DNA from: Chloroflexota bacterium | GTDB lineage: Bacteria > Chloroflexota > Dehalococcoidia > UBA2247 > JAUWOP01 | Assembly (NCBI GenBank): GCA_030612045.1 | Contig: JAUWOP010000002.1 | Location: forward strand, 5,894 to 69,893 | Direction: 5' to 3' | DNA length: 64,000 bases | Part shown: positions 1-61,455 of the stretch, one piece after another | Numbering within the stretch: the first letter of the stretch is position 1 | How the letters are laid out: each line of letters opens with the position of its first letter | Notes under the pieces: generated by a model | What the model saw: the letters and a program-made list of their open reading frames with translations, nothing else | Database searches by the model: none | What the model was told of the DNA's origin: nothing | Made by a program: the position numbers and the translations under genes

Positions 1-892
1 GGTTCCTGTTTTGAAATTTATTACACTCAACAAGGCTAGCTTCATTGGGGGTCTCAATACCAACAAACACTGTATCAAACCCCGCCTTGACCATCAGATT
101 CATGAGCTCATCATCATCCGAGAGATTTATAGATGCTTCAGTGAAGAATGAAAAGGGGTAAGTTTTCCTATCCATCCATTCAATTACAGCAGGCAGGATA
201 TCCCTCTTCAGTTTCATCTTATGCCCTATGAAGTTATCATCCACGATGAATACACCCCCCCGCCACCCATGATTATGCAATGTGTCAAGCTCTCCGAGTA
301 ATTGCTCTCTGCTTTTTGTTCGCGGTACATGCCCATTCAACACAACAATATCACAAAACTCACAATCAAAGGGGCAGCCTCGAGAATATTGAATACTCAT
401 CGAAGAATATTTCTTCATATTAATAAGGTTCCAGAGAGGAACAGGACTCATCTTTATGTCTGGCCATTTATCAGATGCATAGATGTGCTGGGCACATCCA
501 TTGTCCAGGTCTTGTAAAAAGGGCGCAAGTGTAATTTCAGCCTCGCCAAGCACAAGATGGTCTACTTCCTTAAATTCCTCATACTCGGTAGTAAAAAGAG
601 GTCCACCAGCCACAGTCTTAATGCCCAACCCCTTACATTTCCGGACAACCCTTTTCGCCGACTCTCTTTGTACTGCCATAGCACCGATAAATACATAGTC
701 AGCCCACTCGATGTCCTTATCCTTCAAGGTGGTCACATTCATATCTACAAGCTTTCTCTCCCACTCTCTGGGAAGCATTGCTGCTACAGTTAATAAACCC
801 AGGGGTGGGAAGGATGCCTTCTTAGAGATAAATTTCAAGGCATGCTTAAAACTCCAGAAAGTATCCTTGTACTGTGGATAAATAAGAATTAT
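1..892 (-). CDS. B12-binding-domain radical SAM protein (class B), N-terminal part; the 3' end runs off the window
   Basis: Reverse-strand translation gives MKLKIILIYPQYKD...FISKKASFPPLGLLTVAAMLP (B12-binding-like region) followed by SRGCPFDCEFC (CxxxCxxC radical SAM cluster motif). A GAGGAGG RBS precedes a TTG/AAG start near 890. Not listed in the ORF track because it is open at the window edge. Confidence 0.6.
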   Translation of the reverse strand, partial: MILIYPQYKDTFWSFKHALKFISKKASFPPLGLLTVAAMLPREWERKLVDMNVTTLKDKDIEWADYVFIGAMAVQRESAKRVVRKCKGLGIKTVAGGPLFTTEYEEFKEVDHLVLGEAEITLAPFLQDLDNGCAQHIYASDKWPDIKMSPVPLWNLINMKKYSSMSIQYSRGCPFDCEFCDIVVLNGHVPRTKSREQLLGELDTLHNHGWRGGVFIVDDNFIGHKMKLKRDILPAVIEWMDRKTYPFSFFTEASINLSDDDELMNLMVKAGFDTVFVGIETPNEASLVECNKFQNRN

Positions 893-3232: not shown

Positions 3233-4416
3233 ATAATCGGTTGACCCTGGTCACCATCTATGTAGTAATTCTCTTTACTCATATCGGCTTCAGTATGCTT
3301 TTCCCCGTGAATCCCCGCTATGCTATCTACGTGGGGGCTTCTGTTTCTCATATTGGATTAATTGTCGGCACCTTCGCTTATGTTACTGCTCTTACTATGA
3401 TACCCTTCGGCTTGCTTGCTGACAGAATAGGGAAACGCTCCCTATTACTCATAGGAGTAACAGCGTGTATTGCAGTTCCCTGGCTTTACCCCCAGGCTAG
3501 CACTCCATCCCAACTGGTACTGGTTATCGGACTTCACGGGCTTGCTACAGCCAGCTTTATTCCTGCCGCCAATGCCTTGCTGGTTGACATCACGCCCCCT
3601 CCTAAATGGGGACGAATCTTAGGGCAATTTACGGCTATTGCTCTACTGGGTATGGCTATTGGTCCCGCAATTGGCGATTTTCTCCTGGAGAACTGCGGCT
3701 TCAACACTGTGTTCCATACCTGTAGTCTGATGCCAATTCCAGGGCTTCTGCTCATAGCAATCGTCTTCAGACGCATCCCACACGAACCCAGCCAGGCAGG
3801 TCGCCCGACGTCGGGTGACCCTACCCTGCCTCGAAGCTCACGAGGTTGGTTGAAAAGCCCTGCAGCACTTATCGCTCTGCTTACGCCGCTATTCATAACC
3901 GTCGGGTCCGGAACTATTTGCGCCTACATGCCCCTCTATGCTGATGAGCTTGGAATCACCTGGGGTGGTGCTGCTGGTTTTCTTATTATGGCGCTTTATG
4001 GTGGGTCGGTGGTGTCGCGCGACCCAGCGGGTAGGATTTCAGATAAGATAGGGAGATTTCCTGTTATCCTCTTTGGATTCGGCATCAGCGTCATTTCCCT
4101 TGCCTGCATCTCTATGGTCACTTCCTTCCCTGCATTAATAGTAACTACTACCTTCTTTGGAGTAGGGATGGGGATTGCTATGCCTCCCGGTTTTGCCCTT
4201 ATGGCGGATGTAGCTCCCGCTGAGATGAGGGGGTTCGGTTTGGGCATAGCAAACAGTTCCCTTCAAGTTGGGGTTGCCGTGGGAGGTAGCTTGATGGGAC
4301 TCGTGGTAGGCACATGGGGTTATGAGATAATGCTATATTGCTGCACCTTGGTAGTAGCTATAGGGATGCTAATCGTGCTGGTGCTCGGCTATTATGCTAG
4401 AAAAAAGAGGCAATAG
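3229..4416 (+). CDS. MFS transporter
   Basis: ~12 predicted TM segments, a GxLADRxGKR-like motif after TM2, and typical MFS architecture. The start overlaps the upstream stop by 4 nt. Confidence 0.7.
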   Translation: MNNRLTLVTIYVVILFTHIGFSMLFPVNPRYAIYVGASVSHIGLIVGTFAYVTALTMIPFGLLADRIGKRSLLLIGVTACIAVPWLYPQASTPSQLVLVIGLHGLATASFIPAANALLVDITPPPKWGRILGQFTAIALLGMAIGPAIGDFLLENCGFNTVFHTCSLMPIPGLLLIAIVFRRIPHEPSQAGRPTSGDPTLPRSSRGWLKSPAALIALLTPLFITVGSGTICAYMPLYADELGITWGGAAGFLIMALYGGSVVSRDPAGRISDKIGRFPVILFGFGISVISLACISMVTSFPALIVTTTFFGVGMGIAMPPGFALMADVAPAEMRGFGLGIANSSLQVGVAVGGSLMGLVVGTWGYEIMLYCCTLVVAIGMLIVLVLGYYARKKRQ

Positions 4417-4564
4417 GGAATACTAGAGACAACAAGTGGAAACCGCCGATGGCTCAATTAATGCATAGCGATAACGAGGGTTGCATCTGATTTCCCATTG
4501 GAGTACCTGTTAACAGACTTTGGTTTGCTGTAACCTTCATAGTACCCGAGAAAGAAGCAAACAC

Positions 4565-4770
4565 ACATGGACGGCTGCCCACCAACGAACCATGAAAATA
4601 AGTTGTCATTGCGAGTCTTTTCCCCTTGTCATTGCGAGCAAAGCGAAGCAATCCCATCGCCACTCCCACCGCCGAGGTTGCTTCGGCACTGCGTGCCTCG
4701 CAATGACACACTATGGGGACGCTCCTCGCAATGGCAGATGTGGGGATGAGGCTATTTTCGGAATAAAGAG
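4565..4770. repeat. composite hairpin repeat array: linker module (ggctgcccaccaacgaaccatgaaaata) followed by nested GTCATTGCGAG...CTCGCAATGAC inverted-repeat unit
   Basis: Nearly identical modules recur at 20941-21030, 24817-24960, 30908-31015, 56327-56395 (inverted), 56902-57060 and 61327-61455. Each has an internal GAAGCAATC(T/C)C / GAG(A/G)TTGCTTC hairpin and ends AATGACA(N)ATGGGG. Confidence 0.85.
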
Positions 4771-6548: not shown

Positions 6549-6840
6549 TAACTACTCAGACAGGATAACAGGATACACATCAGGTAGAGATAGAGACCCT
6601 CCCCCCTCTATCTCTGTTGTTTGGACTGTTAGACAGTTAAACAAGGGGTTGCAACCTCTTGTTCATTTCCTCAGTGTCCTCGGTGAACTCTGTGGCTTAC
6701 CATAGTCGTTGAATGGTTGGGCTGCTGGTTTTGGTTGTCGTTAATCGTTAAAGGTCTTGACGAGTTGCGCAACCCTTTATCCTTCACCGTTCCCTTTCCT
6801 CTGTGAACTCTGTGGCTATCAATTACTGGCTGAGTAGTTA
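6549..6840. repeat. intergenic repeat cluster (family D): GTAACTACTCAG...CTGAGTAGTTAC inverted termini, with internal direct repeats CTCGGTGAACTCTGTGGCT and CTCTGTGAACTCTGTGGCT
   Basis: The GGTAACTACTCAGCC...GATAGCCACAGAG module recurs at 20855-20900, 27805-27835, 52612-52650 and 13990-14003. Confidence 0.7.
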
Positions 6841-8292
6841 CCTTATCTCTTTATGATACCTCTCCAAACCATCTAGCAAAACCCCCAGATTATAGTGGGC
6901 TTCGGCATAGTTCGGATTTACTCTCAATGCCTCCCTGAACTCAGCCTTTGCCTCTTCATACCTCTCCAAATCCTTCCCTAGTAAAATCCCCAGATTATTA
7001 TGGGCTTCGGCATAGTTCGGATTTACCCTCAGTGCCTCTCCGTATTCAGCCTCTGCCTCTTCACATCTCTCCAAATTACTTAACAAAATCCCCAGATTAT
7101 TATGGGTTTCGGCAAGGTCTGGATTTACCCTCAATGCCTCCCTGAACTCAGTCTCTGCCTCTTCACATCTCTCTAAATCCCCTAGCAAATTCCCCAGATT
7201 ACTATGGGCTTCGGCATAGTTCGGATTTATCCTCAATGCTTCCCTGTATTCAGCCTCTGCCTCTTCATGCTTCTCTAAATTCCCTAACAAAACCCCCAGA
7301 TTATTATGGGCTTCGGCAAGGTCTGGATTTATCCTCAATGCTTCCCTGTATTTAGCCTCTGCCTCTTCATGCCTCCCTAGATTCCCTAGCAAATTCCCCA
7401 GATTATTATGGGCTTCGGCATCGTTCGGATTTACTCTCAATGTTTCCCTGAACTCAGCCTCTGCCTCTTCATACCTCTCCAAATCCTTCCCTAGTAAAAT
7501 CCCCAGACTATTATGGGCTTCGGCATAGTTCGGATTTAGCCTCAGTGCCTCTCTGTATTCAGCCTCTGCCTCTTTAAAATCCTCGGCGTAGTAGCAGGCA
7601 TTGCCGCGGTAGAAATGACCCTCTGTGGTGAGATCCTTGATTTTCTTCAGCACCTCTGCCATCACAGCAGCTTCTCTCCTGGCGGCATCCGAAATCCCCT
7701 CCACCTTCCCTACAGTGCTGAGGGAAACAGGGGACTCCACGGCTACCTTTGCCGCCTCCCTAGCTTCTTCAGGCTTGATGCTGATTATGCGGGCTATCTC
7801 ATCTTCTATCTTTTCCATAGCACTCTGGAAGCTTATATTTTTCGTTAGCTCACTTATAATCATTTCCTTATCGGCATCACCGTGGTATGAAAGGATGGTC
7901 GTGCCATTCTTATCAGAAAGGGCTTCAGTAAGGTCTATATGGGCGTTTTTATTTCCAAGGGGGACAACGAACTTCTCCAGTCCGTCCAGCAGTCCCCATT
8001 CATAGGAGATGTTATGTCTCAGCTCATTATAGATGACGATACCGAAGTAGCACCTCCTCATTATCTCCCTGAGTCCCTCATCCGTTTTCACTCCTGCCGA
8101 TATCTCTCTCCCCGTGTGAACCTCAAACCCCCTCCCCTTAAGATAATCTATCAAGATGCGCTCTATCCGGCTTGGATTATCTCCCGATGTAAATGCGAGG
8201 GCTAAGAATACGGACTTGGGGTTAACCCTCTGCTCAGTTTCCATATTAATTCTCCGTCCTCCGTAGCTGCTAATAAAAGGAGAGTTGGTCAA
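6838..8292 (-). CDS. TIR-like (flavodoxin-fold) N-terminal domain protein with nine C-terminal TPR repeats
   Basis: The N-terminus SVFLALAFTSGDN...IERILIDYLKGRGFEVHT...CYFGIVIYNELRHNISYEWGLLDG resembles TIR/DUF1863-type domains. The C-terminus has nine 34-aa repeats of the form NPNYAEAHNNLGxLLGxLERxEEAEAEYREALR. The repeats are near-identical at the DNA level. Confidence 0.55.
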   Translation of the reverse strand: MTNSPFISSYGGRRINMETEQRVNPKSVFLALAFTSGDNPSRIERILIDYLKGRGFEVHTGREISAGVKTDEGLREIMRRCYFGIVIYNELRHNISYEWGLLDGLEKFVVPLGNKNAHIDLTEALSDKNGTTILSYHGDADKEMIISELTKNISFQSAMEKIEDEIARIISIKPEEAREAAKVAVESPVSLSTVGKVEGISDAARREAAVMAEVLKKIKDLTTEGHFYRGNACYYAEDFKEAEAEYREALRLNPNYAEAHNSLGILLGKDLERYEEAEAEFRETLRVNPNDAEAHNNLGNLLGNLGRHEEAEAKYREALRINPDLAEAHNNLGVLLGNLEKHEEAEAEYREALRINPNYAEAHSNLGNLLGDLERCEEAETEFREALRVNPDLAETHNNLGILLSNLERCEEAEAEYGEALRVNPNYAEAHNNLGILLGKDLERYEEAKAEFREALRVNPNYAEAHYNLGVLLDGLERYHKEIR

Positions 8293-8346: not shown

Positions 8347-9615
8347 ATGGTAAGATACCTTGCTGAGTTTATGCTGTCAACTTTGGGAGGGGGGCTTGTC
8401 CGTGTTGTTACTCTGCTGGATTTGCTATACTATAAGAGTTGTAGAGAGTATTTATGGTTACCAAAGATGAACTCTTTTTATCTCCATCAAACCCCTGACC
8501 TCTCCACAAAGGTCAAGGAGCTGGGGAAAGCCTCCGGAGAGGATGCCTTCAGCTCTTATGAACAAGTGGATTCCCTTCCATTTCGATGCTGGATATATTC
8601 CGCCTCATCTCAGGGCAGGGCTATACCTATATTTAAGGTATTGATGAGCAATTCCTGCAGGAACAACTGCCTTTATTGTGCTAGCCGTTCGGGTCGTGAT
8701 TTTCCCAGATATTCTCTTAAGCCAGAGGAGCTTGCTCACGCCTTTGCTGAATTATATAGCTCGAGAATGGTAGAAGGAATCTTTTTAAGCTCAGCAATCG
8801 AAGATAACCCTGACAGGACAATGGAGCAGATGATTCGTGCTATTGAGCTCATTCGCTTCCAGTATAAGTTCAGAGGCTATGTTCACCTTAAACTCATGCC
8901 CGGTGCTAAATTACATTATGTGGAGAGGGCAATCGAGCTTGCGGACAGGGTCTCGGTAAACCTGGAAGCACCAAACCAAAGCCGTCTTAGCAAGATAGGT
9001 CCGAATAAGGAGTTTGCCCATGCCTTAAAGCAGATGGAATATGCTAAGAAGCTAATAGAGCAGGGCATGGGTAGGGCAAGAAGCCAGACAACTCAGTTTG
9101 TGCTTGGAGCATCGGGAGAGTCAGATGAGGAGATTCTTGATACCTTAAACCTCGTCTATGAGAATTTTAACCTCAGGCGCTGCTACTTCAGGTGTTTTCA
9201 TCCTGTGCCTGATACGCCCCTGGAGGGGTATCCACCAACCGTGAAGTGGAGAGAGCGAAGGCTCTATCAGAGTGATTTCCTCATCAGAAACTATGGCTTT
9301 AAGCCCGATGAGATGGTACTTGATGCGGGTGGAAACCTTCTCCTCAATATTGACCCAAAGCTAGCCTGGGTGAATTGCCATCCTGAGCTTTTCCCTGTTG
9401 AGATAAACACTGCTGAGCCTGAGGAGCTGCTGAGAGTGCCCGGATTTGGTCCCCGCACCGTCTCACGAATTTTGGAGCTGAGGAGCAGAGGGAAGCTTAA
9501 CCCCGGTGATTTAAGGCGGGTGGGGGTTCCCTTAAAGCGTGCAGCTCCCTTCCTTCTGGTCGATGGGAGAAGGATAGACAGCAAGGATTGTCCTATCAGG
9601 CTGAGCTTGCTATAA
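8347..9615 (+). CDS. putative DNA modification/repair radical SAM protein with C-terminal helix-hairpin-helix domain; the true start is probably internal (~8467)
   Basis: SCRNNCLYC is a CxxxCxxC motif. The C-terminus PGFGPRTVSRILELR is HhH. The domain organisation matches the radical-SAM DNA-repair-like family that is usually paired with a UDG-like gene; that partner is absent here. Confidence 0.6.
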   Translation: MVRYLAEFMLSTLGGGLVRVVTLLDLLYYKSCREYLWLPKMNSFYLHQTPDLSTKVKELGKASGEDAFSSYEQVDSLPFRCWIYSASSQGRAIPIFKVLMSNSCRNNCLYCASRSGRDFPRYSLKPEELAHAFAELYSSRMVEGIFLSSAIEDNPDRTMEQMIRAIELIRFQYKFRGYVHLKLMPGAKLHYVERAIELADRVSVNLEAPNQSRLSKIGPNKEFAHALKQMEYAKKLIEQGMGRARSQTTQFVLGASGESDEEILDTLNLVYENFNLRRCYFRCFHPVPDTPLEGYPPTVKWRERRLYQSDFLIRNYGFKPDEMVLDAGGNLLLNIDPKLAWVNCHPELFPVEINTAEPEELLRVPGFGPRTVSRILELRSRGKLNPGDLRRVGVPLKRAAPFLLVDGRRIDSKDCPIRLSLL

Positions 9616-11939: not shown

Positions 11940-12605
11940 ATGATGAAGAATAGGCTAAGTGAAGAGACAATCGCTATGCGAGTAGCTAAGGAGATTGAAG
12001 ACGGTTTTTTTATCAATCTAGGGATTGGTATCCCTACTCTGGTCTCCGATTTCGTTCCTGAAGATAGGATGGTGATGTTCCAGTCGGAGAATGGTATTCT
12101 AGGTATGGGGGGACTCTTCCCTGCAGGAGAGGGAGACTTCGACCTGGCTAATATGTCCGGGCAGTCCGTAAAGCTCGTGCCTGGCGCCTCTTTCTTCGAT
12201 TGTGTCTACTCCTTCGACATGATTAGAGGCAAACATCTCGATGCGGCTGTATTGGGGGGATTTCAGGTATCAGAGAAGGGTGACCTGTCGAACTGGATGC
12301 TGAACGAGAGAAAAGTGGGTGGGGTAGGAGGGGCAATGGATGTAGCAGTAGGTGCCAAGAGGCTTTTCATCGCCATGACGCATACTGATAAGAACGGGAA
12401 TGCCAAAATAGTCAAGGAATGCACCCAGCCTGTTACCGCCCAAAGGTGTGTAAACACAATATTTACCGACTTGGCGGTTATTGAGGTAACTGAGGAAGGG
12501 CTATTACTGAAAGAAATAGCCCCCGGTTGGCAGGTAGAGGAGGTTCAAGCACTCACTGAACCCAGGCTTCTAGTAAGTAGCGACCTTAGAGAGATTACCC
12601 TCTAG
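11940..12605 (+). CDS. 3-oxoacid CoA-transferase subunit B
   Basis: ENGxLGxG motif (SENGILGMGG) carrying the catalytic Glu. Confidence 0.8.
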   Translation: MMKNRLSEETIAMRVAKEIEDGFFINLGIGIPTLVSDFVPEDRMVMFQSENGILGMGGLFPAGEGDFDLANMSGQSVKLVPGASFFDCVYSFDMIRGKHLDAAVLGGFQVSEKGDLSNWMLNERKVGGVGGAMDVAVGAKRLFIAMTHTDKNGNAKIVKECTQPVTAQRCVNTIFTDLAVIEVTEEGLLLKEIAPGWQVEEVQALTEPRLLVSSDLREITL

Positions 12606-12750
12606 TGTAGTGTAATTGTAATAACTATACAGTTTGTCATTCCGTGCTTGACACGGAATCCATCCCTGGACCTTCTGGATTCCCGCTTTCGCGGGAATGA
12701 CATGGGGCGCTTCATTGTCGAGTCATTTAGGAGACACTACACTAGAAGTA
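12601..12750. repeat. MITE-like element (family B): perfect 11-bp terminal inverted repeats CTAGTGTAGTG/CACTACACTAG flank a two-hairpin core TGTCATTCCgtg..cacGGAATCC...GATTCCCGCtttcGCGGGAATGACATGGGG
   Basis: A near-identical copy including the flanks lies at 43030-43206. Core variants lie at 57145-57215, 61201-61267 and 25847-25886 (inside a CDS). Confidence 0.8.
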
Positions 12751-17195: not shown

Positions 17196-17228
17196 ATTCG
17201 AATGTAGAGTAGTTTCGACTAGCTTCCT

Positions 17229-17311
17229 GCCGAAGTGGCGGAATGGCAGACGCGCTACGTTCAGGGCGTAGTGCCCTCAGGGGCATGGGAGTTCAAGTCT
17301 CCCCTTCGGCA
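17229..17311 (+). tRNA. tRNA-Leu (anticodon CAG)
   Basis: Manual cloverleaf. Acceptor GCCGAAG/CTTCGGC, anticodon loop TTCAGGG, long variable arm (type II), T-loop GTTCAAGTC. CCA is not encoded. Confidence 0.8.
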
Positions 17312-17331
17312 TTAAATCAAGGGCTAAGGGA

Positions 17332-17405
17332 GCGCTTGTAGCTCAGTAGGATAGAGCGCAGCCCTGCGGAGGCTGAGGTCGTGGGTTCGAGACCCACCAA
17401 GCGCG
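17332..17405 (+). tRNA. tRNA-Arg (anticodon GCG by manual fold)
   Basis: Acceptor GCGCTTG/CAAGCGC, anticodon stem CAGCC/GGCTG, loop CTGCGGA with U33 and G37, T-loop GTTCGAGAC. Confidence 0.65.
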
Positions 17406-17410
17406 CTAGA

Positions 17411-17483
17411 GGGCGATTAGCTCAGCGGTGAGAGCACCAGTTTTACACACTGGGGGTCAGAGGTTCAAATCCTCTATCGCCCA
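17411..17483 (+). tRNA. tRNA-Val (anticodon TAC)
   Basis: Acceptor GGGCGAT/ATCGCCC, anticodon loop TTTACAC, T-loop GTTCAAATC. Confidence 0.8.
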
Positions 17484-17501
17484 CTTACTCACATAAGGAA
17501 T

Positions 17502-20910: not shown

Positions 20911-21045
20911 GTTTATAGAGTTCATTGGGTTCATTACGAGCCTTTCCCCTTTGTCATTGCGAGCGAAGCGAAGCAATCTCAGTGGGGGGAGGGGCGATGA
21001 GATTGCTTCGTCGCTAGCGCTCCTCGCAACGACATGGGGATGATG
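20855..21045. repeat. repeat cluster: family D, family C and one GTCATTGCGAG hairpin unit
   Basis: See the family descriptions above. 20941-21030 is a single A-type hairpin. Confidence 0.8.
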
Positions 21046-24799: not shown

Positions 24800-25160
24800 A
24801 GGTAATCGTTCACCTGTGTCATTGCGAGCCCTTTCCCCCTGTCATTGCGAGCGAAGCGAAGCAATCTCATCGTTACTTCCCCCGCCGAGATTGCTTCGGC
24901 ACTGCGTGCCTCGCAATGACAGATTATGGGGACGCTCTTCGCAATGACAGATGTGGGGATCAGTCTATTTTCAGAGCAAAGAATCTCATTGGAGTGGAGA
25001 TGATGAGTTTATAGAGTTTGTAGTGTTATAGAGTTGATGGGGTTGGTGGGGAACTCAATAAACTCAATAAACTCAAAGAACTCATCGAGGGAGGGATGTC
25101 ATTTCGACCGAAGGGAGAAATCTTGAGCGTAAGATTCCTCACATGCGTTCGGAATGACAA
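24800..25160. repeat. dense intergenic repeat array: two nested A-type hairpin units, a family C unit and a degenerate B-type unit (25097-25158)
   Basis: The flank ATCGTTCACCTGTGTCATTGCGAG is shared with the 30903 copy. Confidence 0.85.
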
Positions 25161-30902: not shown

Positions 30903-31015
30903 TTGTGATCGTTCACCTGTGTCATTGCGAGCGAAGCGAAGCAATCTCGTTCTCCCCTTACCGAGATTGCTTCGTCGCTACGCTCCTCGCAATGACATGA
31001 GAGCGGGTGAACGGT
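30903..31015. repeat. A-type hairpin unit with outer CGTTCACC...GGTGAACG inverted flanks
   Basis: It overlaps the 3' end of hsdS and supplies its last residues (...MSLRGA) and stop codon. Confidence 0.8.
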
Positions 31016-43029: not shown

Positions 43030-43206
43030 TTTTGGTAAGTAGTGTAGTGTAATCGTAATAACTATACAGTTTGTCATTCCGTGCTTGACACGGAATCCAT
43101 CCCCTAGACCTTCTGGATTCCTGCTGGAGTTTACCCCGTACTTGATACGGGGCAGGAATGACATGGGGTACCCTATTGTCAGGTCATTTAAGAGACACTG
43201 CACTAG
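43030..43206. repeat. MITE-like family-B element (second full copy with TIRs TAGTGTAGTG / CACTGCACTAG)
   Basis: Identical flanks and core to 12601-12750, plus an extra internal hairpin CCCCGTActtgaTACGGGG. Confidence 0.8.
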
Positions 43207-53776: not shown

Positions 53777-53849
53777 GGGGATATAGCTCAGTTGGGAGAG
53801 CGCTGCGTTCGCATCGCAGAGGTTGGGGGTTCGAATCCCCCTATCTCCA
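53777..53849 (+). tRNA. tRNA-Ala (anticodon CGC)
   Basis: Acceptor GGGGATA/TATCTCC with a G3:U70 wobble pair (the Ala identity element). Anticodon loop TTCGCAT, T-loop GTTCGAATC. Confidence 0.8.
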
Positions 53850-54048
53850 CTCTTTTCATCTCTTTCTTAACACTGTATCTCATTCTTACCCTGAAATGGT
53901 TATAGCTATCCCCCGGTGAGCTTTCCCATAAAGTGACCTATCCCCAACAACCACGATAAAATAGAAGCTTAACCAATCAATGCTGCTCCAGCTTGACAAA
54001 AGAAGGGAAACCCTATACGATGAAGAGGTTAATTTTAAATTGGAGGTA

Positions 54049-56326: not shown

Positions 56327-56395
56327 GGAGCGCTAGCGAGATTGCTTCGCTTTGCTCGCAATGACAACCTATTTTCATGATTCGTCGGTGAGCAG
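56327..56395. repeat. A-type hairpin + linker module in inverted orientation
   Basis: GTCATTGCGAGgagcgctagcGAGATTGCTTCGctttgCTCGCAATGAC, then CCTATTTTCATG (reverse complement of CCATGAAAATAGG). Confidence 0.8.
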
Positions 56396-56446
56396 TTACA
56401 CATGGGGATTTGCTATCTTAATTCTTATTCTCGCGAGGAGATTTCC

Positions 56447-56935
56447 ATGGTAGAGCCACTGGAGCAGATTTTCGCTTCGTGTAAAGTTGAAAGGAAAGAG
56501 CTTATTCCCTTACTACAGGAAATTCAGGAAAAGCTGGGCTATCTCTCTGATGATGCCATGAAGGCTGCTGCCGAATTTCTGCATATTCCTCCGAGTGCTG
56601 TCTATGGAGTGGCTACCTTCTATAACCAGTTCCGTTTTGTTCCTGCGGGGAAACATCCCCTGAAGATCTGCCTGGGGACTGCCTGTCACATACAGGGGAG
56701 CAAGCTCATTATGGAAGCTATGGAGCGAGAGTTGGATATTAAGGCGGGGAATGTTACCCCTGACCATGAGTTCAGCCTGGATAGGGTTGCCTGTGTGGGG
56801 TGCTGCGCTCTGGCTCCAGTAATAATAGACAAAAAGACAGTCTACCCCCGGATGACCCCCTTCAAGGTAGAGGAGGTGCTGGCTCTTCTCAAGGAAGAAA
56901 ATGCCCATGGGCGGTTGCCCACCAACGAACCATGA
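56447..56935 (+). CDS. NuoE-like thioredoxin-fold [2Fe-2S] ferredoxin subunit (NADH dehydrogenase 24 kDa / HoxF-HydC type)
   Basis: The four Cys (C..C...C..C: CLGTACHIQG...CVGCCALAP) of the NuoE family. The C-terminal tail HGRLPTNEP and the stop codon are supplied by the repeat linker module. Confidence 0.8.
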   Translation: MVEPLEQIFASCKVERKELIPLLQEIQEKLGYLSDDAMKAAAEFLHIPPSAVYGVATFYNQFRFVPAGKHPLKICLGTACHIQGSKLIMEAMERELDIKAGNVTPDHEFSLDRVACVGCCALAPVIIDKKTVYPRMTPFKVEEVLALLKEENAHGRLPTNEP

Positions 56936-57240
56936 AAATAGGCTGTCATTGCGAGCGAAGCGAAGCAATCTCGGTGGGGCGGCGATGAGATTGCTTCGTC
57001 GCTACGCTCCTCGCAATGACACATTATGGGGGCGTGCCTCGCAATGACAAATGTGGGGTCAGTCTATTTTCGGAATAAACACTCATGGGCGGCTGCCCAC
57101 CAACGAACCATGAAAATAGTGCTTCCTTGCAACGACTTTGCCTGTCATTCCTGCGGAAGCAGGAATCCATGTGGGGTGGGTGTAGATTCCCGCCTGCGCG
57201 GGAATGACATAGTCTATTTTCGAAGCAAAGAGTGTGAATC
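56902..57240. repeat. 340-bp repeat array: linker, nested A-type hairpin unit, linker (CTATTTTCGGAATAAACACTCATGGGCGGCTGCCCACCAACGAACCATGAAAATAG), B-type two-hairpin unit, linker
   Basis: Same module order (in a different arrangement) as 61195-61455. Confidence 0.85.
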
Positions 57241-61194: not shown

Positions 61195-61455
61195 ACCCAT
61201 TGTCATTCCTGCGGAAGCAGGAATCCAGGTAAGGCAGGTGTAGATTCCCGCGTAGGCGGGAATGACATATTCTATTTTCGAAGCAAACACTCATGGGCGG
61301 CTGCCCACCAACGAACCATGAAAATAGCCTGTCATTGCGAGCCTTTCCCCTCTGTTATTGCGAGCGAAGCGAAGCAATCTCGGTGGGGTAGAAGAGATTG
61401 CTTCGTCGCCATGCTCCTCGCAAAGACACATCGAGAATCTATTTTCGGAATAAAT
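61195..61455. repeat. repeat array: B-type two-hairpin unit, linker, nested A-type unit, linker
   Basis: 61201-61267 matches 57145-57215. 61327-61425 matches 56941-57050. Confidence 0.85.

Follow-up and report, generated by a model that had tools for sequence, protein, structure and literature searches.

A TIR-like domain of the Cap12/PycTIR type joined to a variable tetratricopeptide repeat array: a candidate sensor-effector of a Dehalococcoidia bacterium and uncultured archaea

Introduction

TIR-type enzymes that cleave nicotinamide adenine dinucleotide (NAD+), or NADases, are an immune currency common to bacteria, plants and animals. What triggers most of the known bacterial TIR forms is a nucleotide sensor (STING, SAVED, Pycsar), an Argonaute or a STAND ATPase. 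The TIR-II system of E. coli consists of a single protein that combines a TIR domain with tetratricopeptide repeats (TPRs), and its protection against phages requires the active-site residues of the TIR domain (PMC11350192). TIR-II was reported to be the most abundant and widespread TIR system of the survey in question, and about 30 % of TIR-II systems also have an ATPase (PMC11350192). The present work concerns a gene found on a stretch of 64,000 nucleotides (nt) of contig JAUWOP010000002.1, from a Chloroflexota bacterium of the class Dehalococcoidia (the whole stretch is hereafter called the window). Its product of 468 amino acids carries an N-terminal domain that profiles and homologues support as TIR-like, of the Cap12/PycTIR type, followed by a helical linker and a TPR array (Table 1).

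Compared by architecture only, the window protein resembles TIR-II in being one polypeptide with a TIR-like domain, TPRs and no obligatory partner; TIR-II is widespread, whereas the present family is extremely rare and mostly archaeal, and the PADLOC models gave no match to the N-terminal domain described here. CAP12/PycTIR (PF10137), the NADase effector of TIR-STING CBASS (Cap12) and of Pycsar (PycTIR), shares with the family a helix motif R-x-N-x3-E-x-G and a downstream S-D loop. Unlike Cap12, the family lacks a 13-residue insertion before the R-x-N motif and has T-G-R where Cap12 has a conserved Trp ('W..D.F'); its partner is a TPR array instead of a cyclic-nucleotide sensor (STING or the PycTIR sensor), and no cyclase or CD-NTase gene lies near the TIR-like/TPR gene.

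Two further groups of proteins are pertinent. On the one hand, Avs and other STAND proteins akin to nucleotide-binding leucine-rich repeat receptors (NLRs) also combine an N-terminal effector, with a TIR or DUF4062/NIR fold, and a C-terminal TPR sensor; the related DUF4062/NIR folds are NADase effectors (preprint 10.64898/2026.09.04.749371). The repeats of NLR arrays are, as here, internally similar and change in number. In the window protein, however, a helical linker of about 80 residues replaces the STAND/NACHT NTPase and the protein is much shorter (468 residues): no STAND (NACHT/NB-ARC) P-loop domain appeared in the Pfam, NCBIfam and PADLOC scans, and residues 126-205 are modelled as four helices without an NTPase fold. 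On the other hand, MilB, nucleoside 2-deoxyribosyltransferase (NDT) and DNPH1 provide the best structural matches and have a Glu in the equivalent helix, and a link between TIR domains and MilB has also been drawn elsewhere (PMC9402430). Those enzymes are small, stand-alone and devoid of TPRs, whereas the motif spacing of the present family follows TIR domains of the Cap12 type.

Fold and Family of the N-Terminal Domain

The comparisons rest on three alignments: A2, with 20 members of the family; A3, with 19 sequences trimmed to the domain; and A4, with 21 PF10137 proteins seeded on Cap12 chain 9lmq_A. Against the PDB, the A3 profile retrieved Cap12 first (E 0.0017), then plant TIRs, SEFIR, a bacterial TIR, a caspase and a designed Rossmann protein, with no deoxyribosyltransferase among its matches. 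Aligned to A4 by hhalign, A3 gave a probability of 95.9 % (E 5.6e-9, 100 columns). Two members, P0008 (28.4 bits) and P0018 (27.4 bits), pass the PF10137 gathering score of 24.7 bits over nearly the whole profile; they are 42 % and 40 % identical, respectively, to the window protein over the matched stretches. The PF10137 matches of ten other members fall under that score. When the 20 members were submitted to Pfam singly, 12 matched PF10137, eight PF05014, five TIR_2, five TIR and two DUF4062, most of them under the cut-offs; the PF05014 matches (gathering score 28.8) reached 22.2 bits in the best member and cover only beta3-alphaC-beta4. The TIR-like N-terminus proposed in a first-pass annotation of this DNA is therefore upheld by the order of the profile matches, by the hhalign probability and by P0008 and P0018. 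The closest similarity lies with the Cap12/PycTIR type rather than with the DUF1863-like pattern (PF08937, the ThsB type) that it suggested, and the two motifs that it quoted, VFLALAF and GIVIYNELRHNISYEWGLLDG, are present and correspond to the conserved core of the domain family.

The AlphaFold model of residues 1-215, built from A2, has a predicted local distance difference test (pLDDT) score of 86.7 and a predicted template modelling score of 0.82. It contains five strands (residues 11-120) followed by four helices (126-200), and the strands form a five-stranded parallel beta-sheet of the flavodoxin-like kind, with the strand order and helices of TIR domains. The best Foldseek matches in the PDB were MilB (3e-4) and the SPARTA TIR-APAZ protein (5e-4); among viral structures, a Cap12/Pycsar TIR protein came first (5.9e-5). 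The modelled fold alone is unable to separate TIR from the deoxyribosyltransferase superfamily, and the same ambiguity has been published for TIR-STING (PMC9402430) and for DUF4062/NIR (preprint 10.64898/2026.09.04.749371).

The Putative Active Site

HMMER and hhalign both place the stretch R76-H-N78-I-S-Y-E82-W-G84 opposite R-D-N-V-V-F-E-F-G of Cap12, and S110-D111 aligns by hhalign with the invariant P-S-D of A4. Four residues are invariant in A3 (V70, N78, E82 and G84) and five more are at least 90 % conserved (F13, C65, R76, S110 and D111); in A2, the conservation of E82 is 90 % or more. Cryo-electron microscopy of SfSTING established that R78 and N80 hold the phosphodiester and the ribose, that E84 is catalytic, and that D110 from the dimer mate completes the NADase pocket, which explains activation by filament packing (PMC9402430). 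R76, N78, E82 and D111 of the window protein correspond to R78, N80, E84 and D110 of SfSTING with their spacing kept, and the family consensus spacing F13-x3-S17 equals F6-x3-S10 of SfSTING. The conserved catalytic Glu that the first-pass annotation had proposed to look for would be E82, invariant in A3 and aligned with E84 of SfSTING. The catalytic core argues for an active N-glycosidase whose substrate is less certain, and by analogy with SfSTING D111 may act in trans. As a set, the pocket residues of SfSTING (F6, W33, F37, L47 and Ser10) are not conserved: the conservation is partial, with F13 conserved. Opposite the invariant Trp of A4 stand H43/T44 of the conserved T-G-R motif.

The TPR Array and Changes in Repeat Number

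The C-terminal half of the protein is made of TPRs, with Pfam matches to TPR_11 (E 6.5e-58) and TPR_1 (E 1.5e-45) in seven stretches each. Manual cutting of the protein yields seven complete units (residues 206-445) and a shortened eighth, and the full-length AlphaFold model (pLDDT 86.9) has 15 helices at residues 207-467, where pLDDT is mostly >90, arranged as seven helix pairs and one long terminal helix (unit 8). The first-pass annotation had counted nine near-identical repeats of very high nucleotide identity and about 102 nt. The length agrees with the period of 102 found by Tandem Repeats Finder (TRF); the count comes down to seven complete TPRs plus the shortened one (7.0 copies by TRF), and the degree of identity was overstated, as TRF gave 83 % matches. 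Among units 2-7, identity ranges over 79-96 % in DNA and 68-91 % in protein; 96 % is reached only by units 2 and 7, which share an additional Lys, and unit 1 stands apart, at about 56-63 % identity to the other units. Matches of the protein to PilW, Tgl and PrimPol were rejected as repeat artefacts driven by the TPRs.

Close strains differ in repeat number. The window protein shares its 90 %-identity cluster with a second member, of 506 amino acids, whose contig, L018 (ENA ERZ4219663), is syntenic with the window and about 99 % identical to it over 13.5 kb. The alignment of the two genes shows one substitution (R235K) and one in-frame indel of 114 nt, so that the array of L018 carries exactly one extra unit, a length polymorphism of the kind that the first-pass annotation had proposed to look for. 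Among homologues, the number of TPRs ranges from about 1 to >10, and for 28 of 39 internal units the nearest match is another unit of that protein and not a unit of an orthologue. Because so many units most resemble units of their own protein, the sequences point to repeated local expansion or concerted evolution of TPR units. The recent expansion or recombination put forward in the first-pass annotation is in keeping with both this tally and the one-unit difference between strains.

The linker is kept in homologues, with a motif ES-N/D-I/V-P-L-G, and residues 126-205 match no known family. The window protein ends inside unit 8, without the cap or C-terminal module seen in homologues. Most archaeal homologues have either a conserved C-terminal cap, …AKKLFEKQGR..DVKKV..LLK, or else a further module. 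An extra C-terminal module of about 90 residues, …NLSELY.I..DY…NKGYELTFEF.TLK…, occurs in P0004, P0008, P0009, P0012, P0013, P0018, P0019, P0023 and the member at 1466-2671 of metagenome contig L016; it matched no family in the scans made.

Distribution and Genomic Context

The family is rare and its distribution is patchy across both domains. An exhaustive HMMER search found 24 clusters among 1.84 billion representatives, and a word-indexed search of 5.8 billion proteins returned two relatives. Genome and metagenome scans, the latter made with alignment A1, place it among archaea in Methanophagales (ANME-1), Ca. Argoarchaeum and Ca. Ethanoperedens (GoM-Arc1), other Methanosarcinales/Halobacteriota and Ca. 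Altarchaeum, and among bacteria in one Desulfobacteria genome and one Dehalococcoidia genome. The closest homologue, L010 (Dehalococcoidia), is 69 % identical and sits after recR/dnaX-like genes. A candidate in Poseidoniia (L012) was discarded as a spurious short motif match inside a membrane protein. A distant branch, P0022-P0026 (21-26 % identity), has the motif VILDGLRPNV-x-FEYG-x-L-x-GLGKP and an insertion of 20-25 residues before the S-D motif. Long TPR arrays follow the TIR-like domain in most members of this branch too, which makes the TIR-TPR fusion older than the core family.

The loci have little in common. All-against-all BLASTP of the window and seven loci (L004, L006-L011) found no shared neighbours except between two GoM-Arc1 genomes, and the lists of open reading frames (ORFs) at 12 loci show mostly housekeeping genes. 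Two copies, both in metagenome-assembled genomes, are broken. In L005 (ANME-1, DAOUUS010000267, 356-1337) an in-frame TAA follows ...SGDSD and a frameshift precedes the TPRs; in L011 (Ca. Altarchaeum, JAGWDQ010000053, 9995-11566) there are an in-frame stop and an insert of about 300 nt with an internal direct repeat, located between the TIR-like domain and the linker. These breaks may represent pseudogenes, small insertions or assembly errors. In L016 (Ga0075518_1001060), an ORF at 3326-4336, about 0.65 kb downstream of the family member and separated from it by one ORF of 155 amino acids, resembles a tyrosine recombinase/integrase by C-terminal motifs read by eye; it is the only hint of a mobile-element context.

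Proposed Function and Alternatives

We favor a function as a stand-alone TIR-TPR sensor-effector like TIR-II of E. coli, a reading to which we give an even chance. In this proposal, a TIR-like domain, a helical linker of about 80 residues and a TPR solenoid of seven units with a capping helix would act together as follows. The TPR array would either bind a cue, protein or peptide, whose most plausible source is a virus or another mobile element, or mediate self-association. Either event would bring TIR-like domains together into composite active sites, the D111 of one subunit completing the E82 site of the next, and the N-glycosidic bond of NAD+ or of a related nucleotide would be cleaved. Growth arrest or abortive infection would follow, or a signalling nucleotide would be made. 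We infer the enzymatic activity, its substrate, its trigger and the role in defence, including the NAD+ depletion that the first-pass annotation had associated with such fusions. In favor of the proposal stand the modelled fold, the homology to Cap12-type TIR domains, the kept active-site motif, the precedents of TIR-II and DUF4062/NIR, and signs of an accessory, fast-evolving gene: rarity, scattered hosts, broken copies, the recombinase-like ORF of L016 and the changes in TPR number.

Several observations weigh against this proposal. The nicotinamide-stacking residues of SfSTING, W33 and F37, are not conserved, and because the family has T-G-R in their place NAD+ may not be the substrate. At position 17, where the family consensus is Ser, both the window protein and its strain variant have Ala (LAFTS vs LSYTS). 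No NTPase or nucleotide-sensing domain that would explain activation was found in the protein. Its N-terminal 205-221 residues have no Pfam match even at E <= 10, PADLOC and NCBIfam returned only TPR-driven matches to the protein and none in the N-terminal 205 residues, and phmmer with the N-terminal residues against the PDB gave noise only; any membership of the window protein in CAP12/PycTIR (PF10137) thus goes through profiles and homologues and is transitive, not direct. The window and ten other loci show no recognisable defence island, most of the neighbours being housekeeping genes (YifB, K+ efflux, aspartate kinase, argininosuccinate synthase, RecR/DnaX and ProC). Finally, the 50,697 phage records searched by tblastn contained no match and the 72,556 plasmids a chance match only (E 0.2), and an IMG/VR scan for homologues was negative. 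Taken together, the scattered hosts, the unconserved neighbours, the broken copies and this lack of phage, plasmid and IMG/VR relatives describe a solitary, horizontally moving and dispensable gene, which is neither an operon member nor a housekeeping gene, nor part of a recognisable defence island.

The ambiguity of the fold leaves room for an N-glycosidase or transferase of the MilB/NDT/DNPH1 kind, acting on a (modified) nucleotide, for instance in pool sanitation or salvage, with TPRs that only tether partners. We regard this as unlikely, even though sub-threshold PF05014 matches occur in eight of 20 members and equal the PF10137 matches in quality in P0022-P0026, the stacking Trp/Phe of TIR-STING is not conserved and the neighbours are housekeeping genes. 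The profile matches in the PDB belong to the TIR class and include no deoxyribosyltransferases, every PF05014 match stays under the gathering score while two PF10137 matches exceed theirs, and extreme rarity with a patchy distribution disfavors a salvage or housekeeping role. In deoxyribosyltransferases the motif is spaced D-x-G-T-x2-E-x-G, unlike that of the present family, whose [D/N/E]-x2-R-x-N-x3-E-x-G with a later S-D fits Cap12-type TIR domains. Catalysis itself could be dispensed with if the domain were a non-catalytic TIR interaction module, comparable to those of animal adaptors, on a TPR scaffold or co-chaperone with neither enzymatic nor immune role. TPR proteins are often scaffolds, the genomic context is of the housekeeping type, the adaptor TIRs TIRAP, IL-1RAcP and MyD88 are among the best structural matches, and in a different TIR-like family, TeTIR, the isolated domains of three prokaryotic homologues showed no activity in vitro (preprint 10.64898/2026.09.21.753143). 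This scaffold explanation nevertheless seems to us improbable: R76, N78, E82, S110 and D111 are near-invariant across members only 21-26 % identical overall, this polar motif falls on the very residues that serve catalysis in a proven NADase, a coincidence for which a non-catalytic domain hardly accounts, and a general scaffold would not be so rare.

The gene might also be the partner of the radical-SAM 'DNA modification/repair' gene with which it diverges, for example as regulator or sensor of a DNA-modification system. The two genes stand head-to-head, about 100-230 bp apart, and are paired likewise in the close strain L018; L018 is, however, of the same species (about 99 % identity), which makes its synteny uninformative. 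No such radical-SAM homologue adjoins the gene in L004, L006-L011 and L013-L017 (by BLASTP for seven of these loci and by ORF lists for the rest), and even the closest homologue, L010, adjoins recR/dnaX-like genes instead. With no neighbour shared except between the two GoM-Arc1 genomes, an operon partner or radical-SAM link was rejected; a functional tie between the two genes is not supported, the adjacency looks coincidental, and we consider this explanation highly improbable.

A broader and less probable version of the TIR-TPR sensor-effector proposal is that the family forms an NTPase-free, hitherto unrecognised branch of TIR immune receptors. In such a branch, a rapidly recombining TPR array would directly recognise proteins of viruses or of non-kin cells, ligand-driven oligomerisation would switch on a Cap12-type NADase, and the gene would be exchanged horizontally among syntrophic archaea that oxidise alkanes and methane (ANME-1, GoM-Arc1), Altiarchaeum and neighbouring sediment bacteria. 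If true, the protein would amount to a minimal 'NLR without the N', and these uncultured archaea would have in it one of their few candidate effectors of abortive infection. The family would pair a Cap12-type TIR directly with a TPR array, and its main hosts are uncultured archaea that oxidise alkanes, together with their neighbours in the sediment; the antiviral repertoire of these hosts is poorly known. The N-terminal half of the window protein draws no domain or defence call at the thresholds of Pfam, NCBIfam and PADLOC, and a few homologues pass PF10137. Two strains that are 99 % identical yet differ by one TPR unit offer a concrete case of repeat-array diversification in a prokaryotic candidate receptor. 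TIR NADases and the TIR plus TPR architecture were already known; what is new is a divergent, unannotated subfamily of the Cap12 type wired to TPRs, its hosts and the strain-level change in repeats. Should the protein prove an ordinary scaffold or nucleotide hydrolase, the gain would be a modest improvement in annotation only.

The Gene and Its Immediate Surroundings

The first-pass annotation had given the ORF as 6838-8292. The frame is indeed uninterrupted on the minus strand from 8292 to 6838, but the 484-amino-acid product of a TTG start is without support, and translation most likely starts at ATG 8244 rather than at TTG 8292, because GGAGGACGGAGA at 8251-8262 precedes this ATG. The product from ATG 8244 matches P0003 of a public protein collection at 100 %, and the strain variant P0052 uses the same start. 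The promoter match listed in Table 1 is a candidate only, since promoter-like sites are not above chance (3 found vs 2.8 expected from shuffling). A search of all window ORFs with the family profile (hmmsearch) returned only the gene itself, hence no second copy.

Table 1. Features of the TIR-like/TPR gene and its product (nucleotide positions in the window; residues counted from ATG 8244)
Feature	Position	Strand	Basis or remarks
TIR-like/TPR coding sequence	6838..8244	minus	ORF and exact P0003 match; 468 amino acids; stop codon 6838-6840
Shine-Dalgarno-like GGAGGACGGAGA	8251..8262	minus	5' of ATG 8244; read from sequence
Weak sigma-70-like promoter candidate, TTGACA-17 nt-TATCTT, 10/12	8352..8380	minus	Consensus match
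TIR-like domain, Cap12/PycTIR type (supported by profiles), residues ~8-125	7870..8223	minus	
Predicted elements: beta1 11-16, alphaA 26-37, beta2 41-44, alphaB 54-63, beta3 67-72, alphaC 77-88, beta4 92-98, beta5 118-120			
Putative active-site motif R76-H-N78-I-S-Y-E82	7999..8019	minus	E82 candidate catalytic Glu, start of alphaC
S110-D111 loop motif, candidate trans-acting Asp	7912..7917	minus	Conservation and hhalign to P-S-D
Helical linker, residues 126-205	7630..7869	minus	Helices 126-135, 137-154, 158-170, 186-200; lower-confidence loop ~171-185
TPR array, residues 206-468	6841..7629	minus	Pfam TPR families, manual unit boundaries, full-length model
TPR units 1-7	7528-7629, 7423-7527, 7321-7422, 7219-7320, 7117-7218, 7015-7116, 6910-7014	minus	
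Shortened eighth TPR unit	6841-6909	minus	Residues 446-468
102-nt tandem DNA repeat beneath TPR units 2-8	6856..7574		TRF: 7.0 copies, 83 % matches, score 946
Strain polymorphism: 114 extra nt in L018, one 38-amino-acid TPR unit	7120..7121	minus	Gene alignment

The divergent layout described in the first-pass annotation is confirmed: the head-to-head ORF at 8347-9615 (plus strand) matches TIGR03916, 'putative DNA modification/repair radical SAM protein' (E 1.1e-90), with a score of 304.8 bits, under the curated cut-off of 343.5. The match begins only at residue 84 of this ORF. The promoter-like site 8352-8380 falls within its first codons, for which reason its real start is probably downstream of 8347. 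A YifB-type ATPase gene comes after the radical-SAM ORF, and a CPA2 K+ efflux gene lies downstream of the TIR-like/TPR gene.

Other Features of the Window

Short dispersed repeats of about 80-215 nt, 79-95 % identical, occur at 4551-4769, 20931-21034, 24817-24982, 30920-30997, 56337-57229 and 61201-61431, and are possibly a REP/MITE-like element. At 56-57 kb and 61 kb the arrangement is partly tandem or nested, and the copy at 4551-4769 occupies the spacer between MFS and CPA2 transporter genes, where there are only spurious small ORFs. A different pair of 86-nt repeats (12603-12687 and 43040-43125), 95 % identical and in the same orientation, is separated by 30 kb, its first copy lying directly after two CoA-transferase genes. 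The 64,000 nt contain no rRNA; the bacterial neighbours YifB, GreA and LemA, with L010 as closest homologue (69 %), suggest a bacterial source, probably of the Chloroflexota/Dehalococcoidia. They hold a cluster of three tRNA genes at 17228-17484 on the plus strand (Leu-CAG, Arg-GCG and Val-TAC) and a fourth tRNA gene, Ala-CGC, at 53777-53850.

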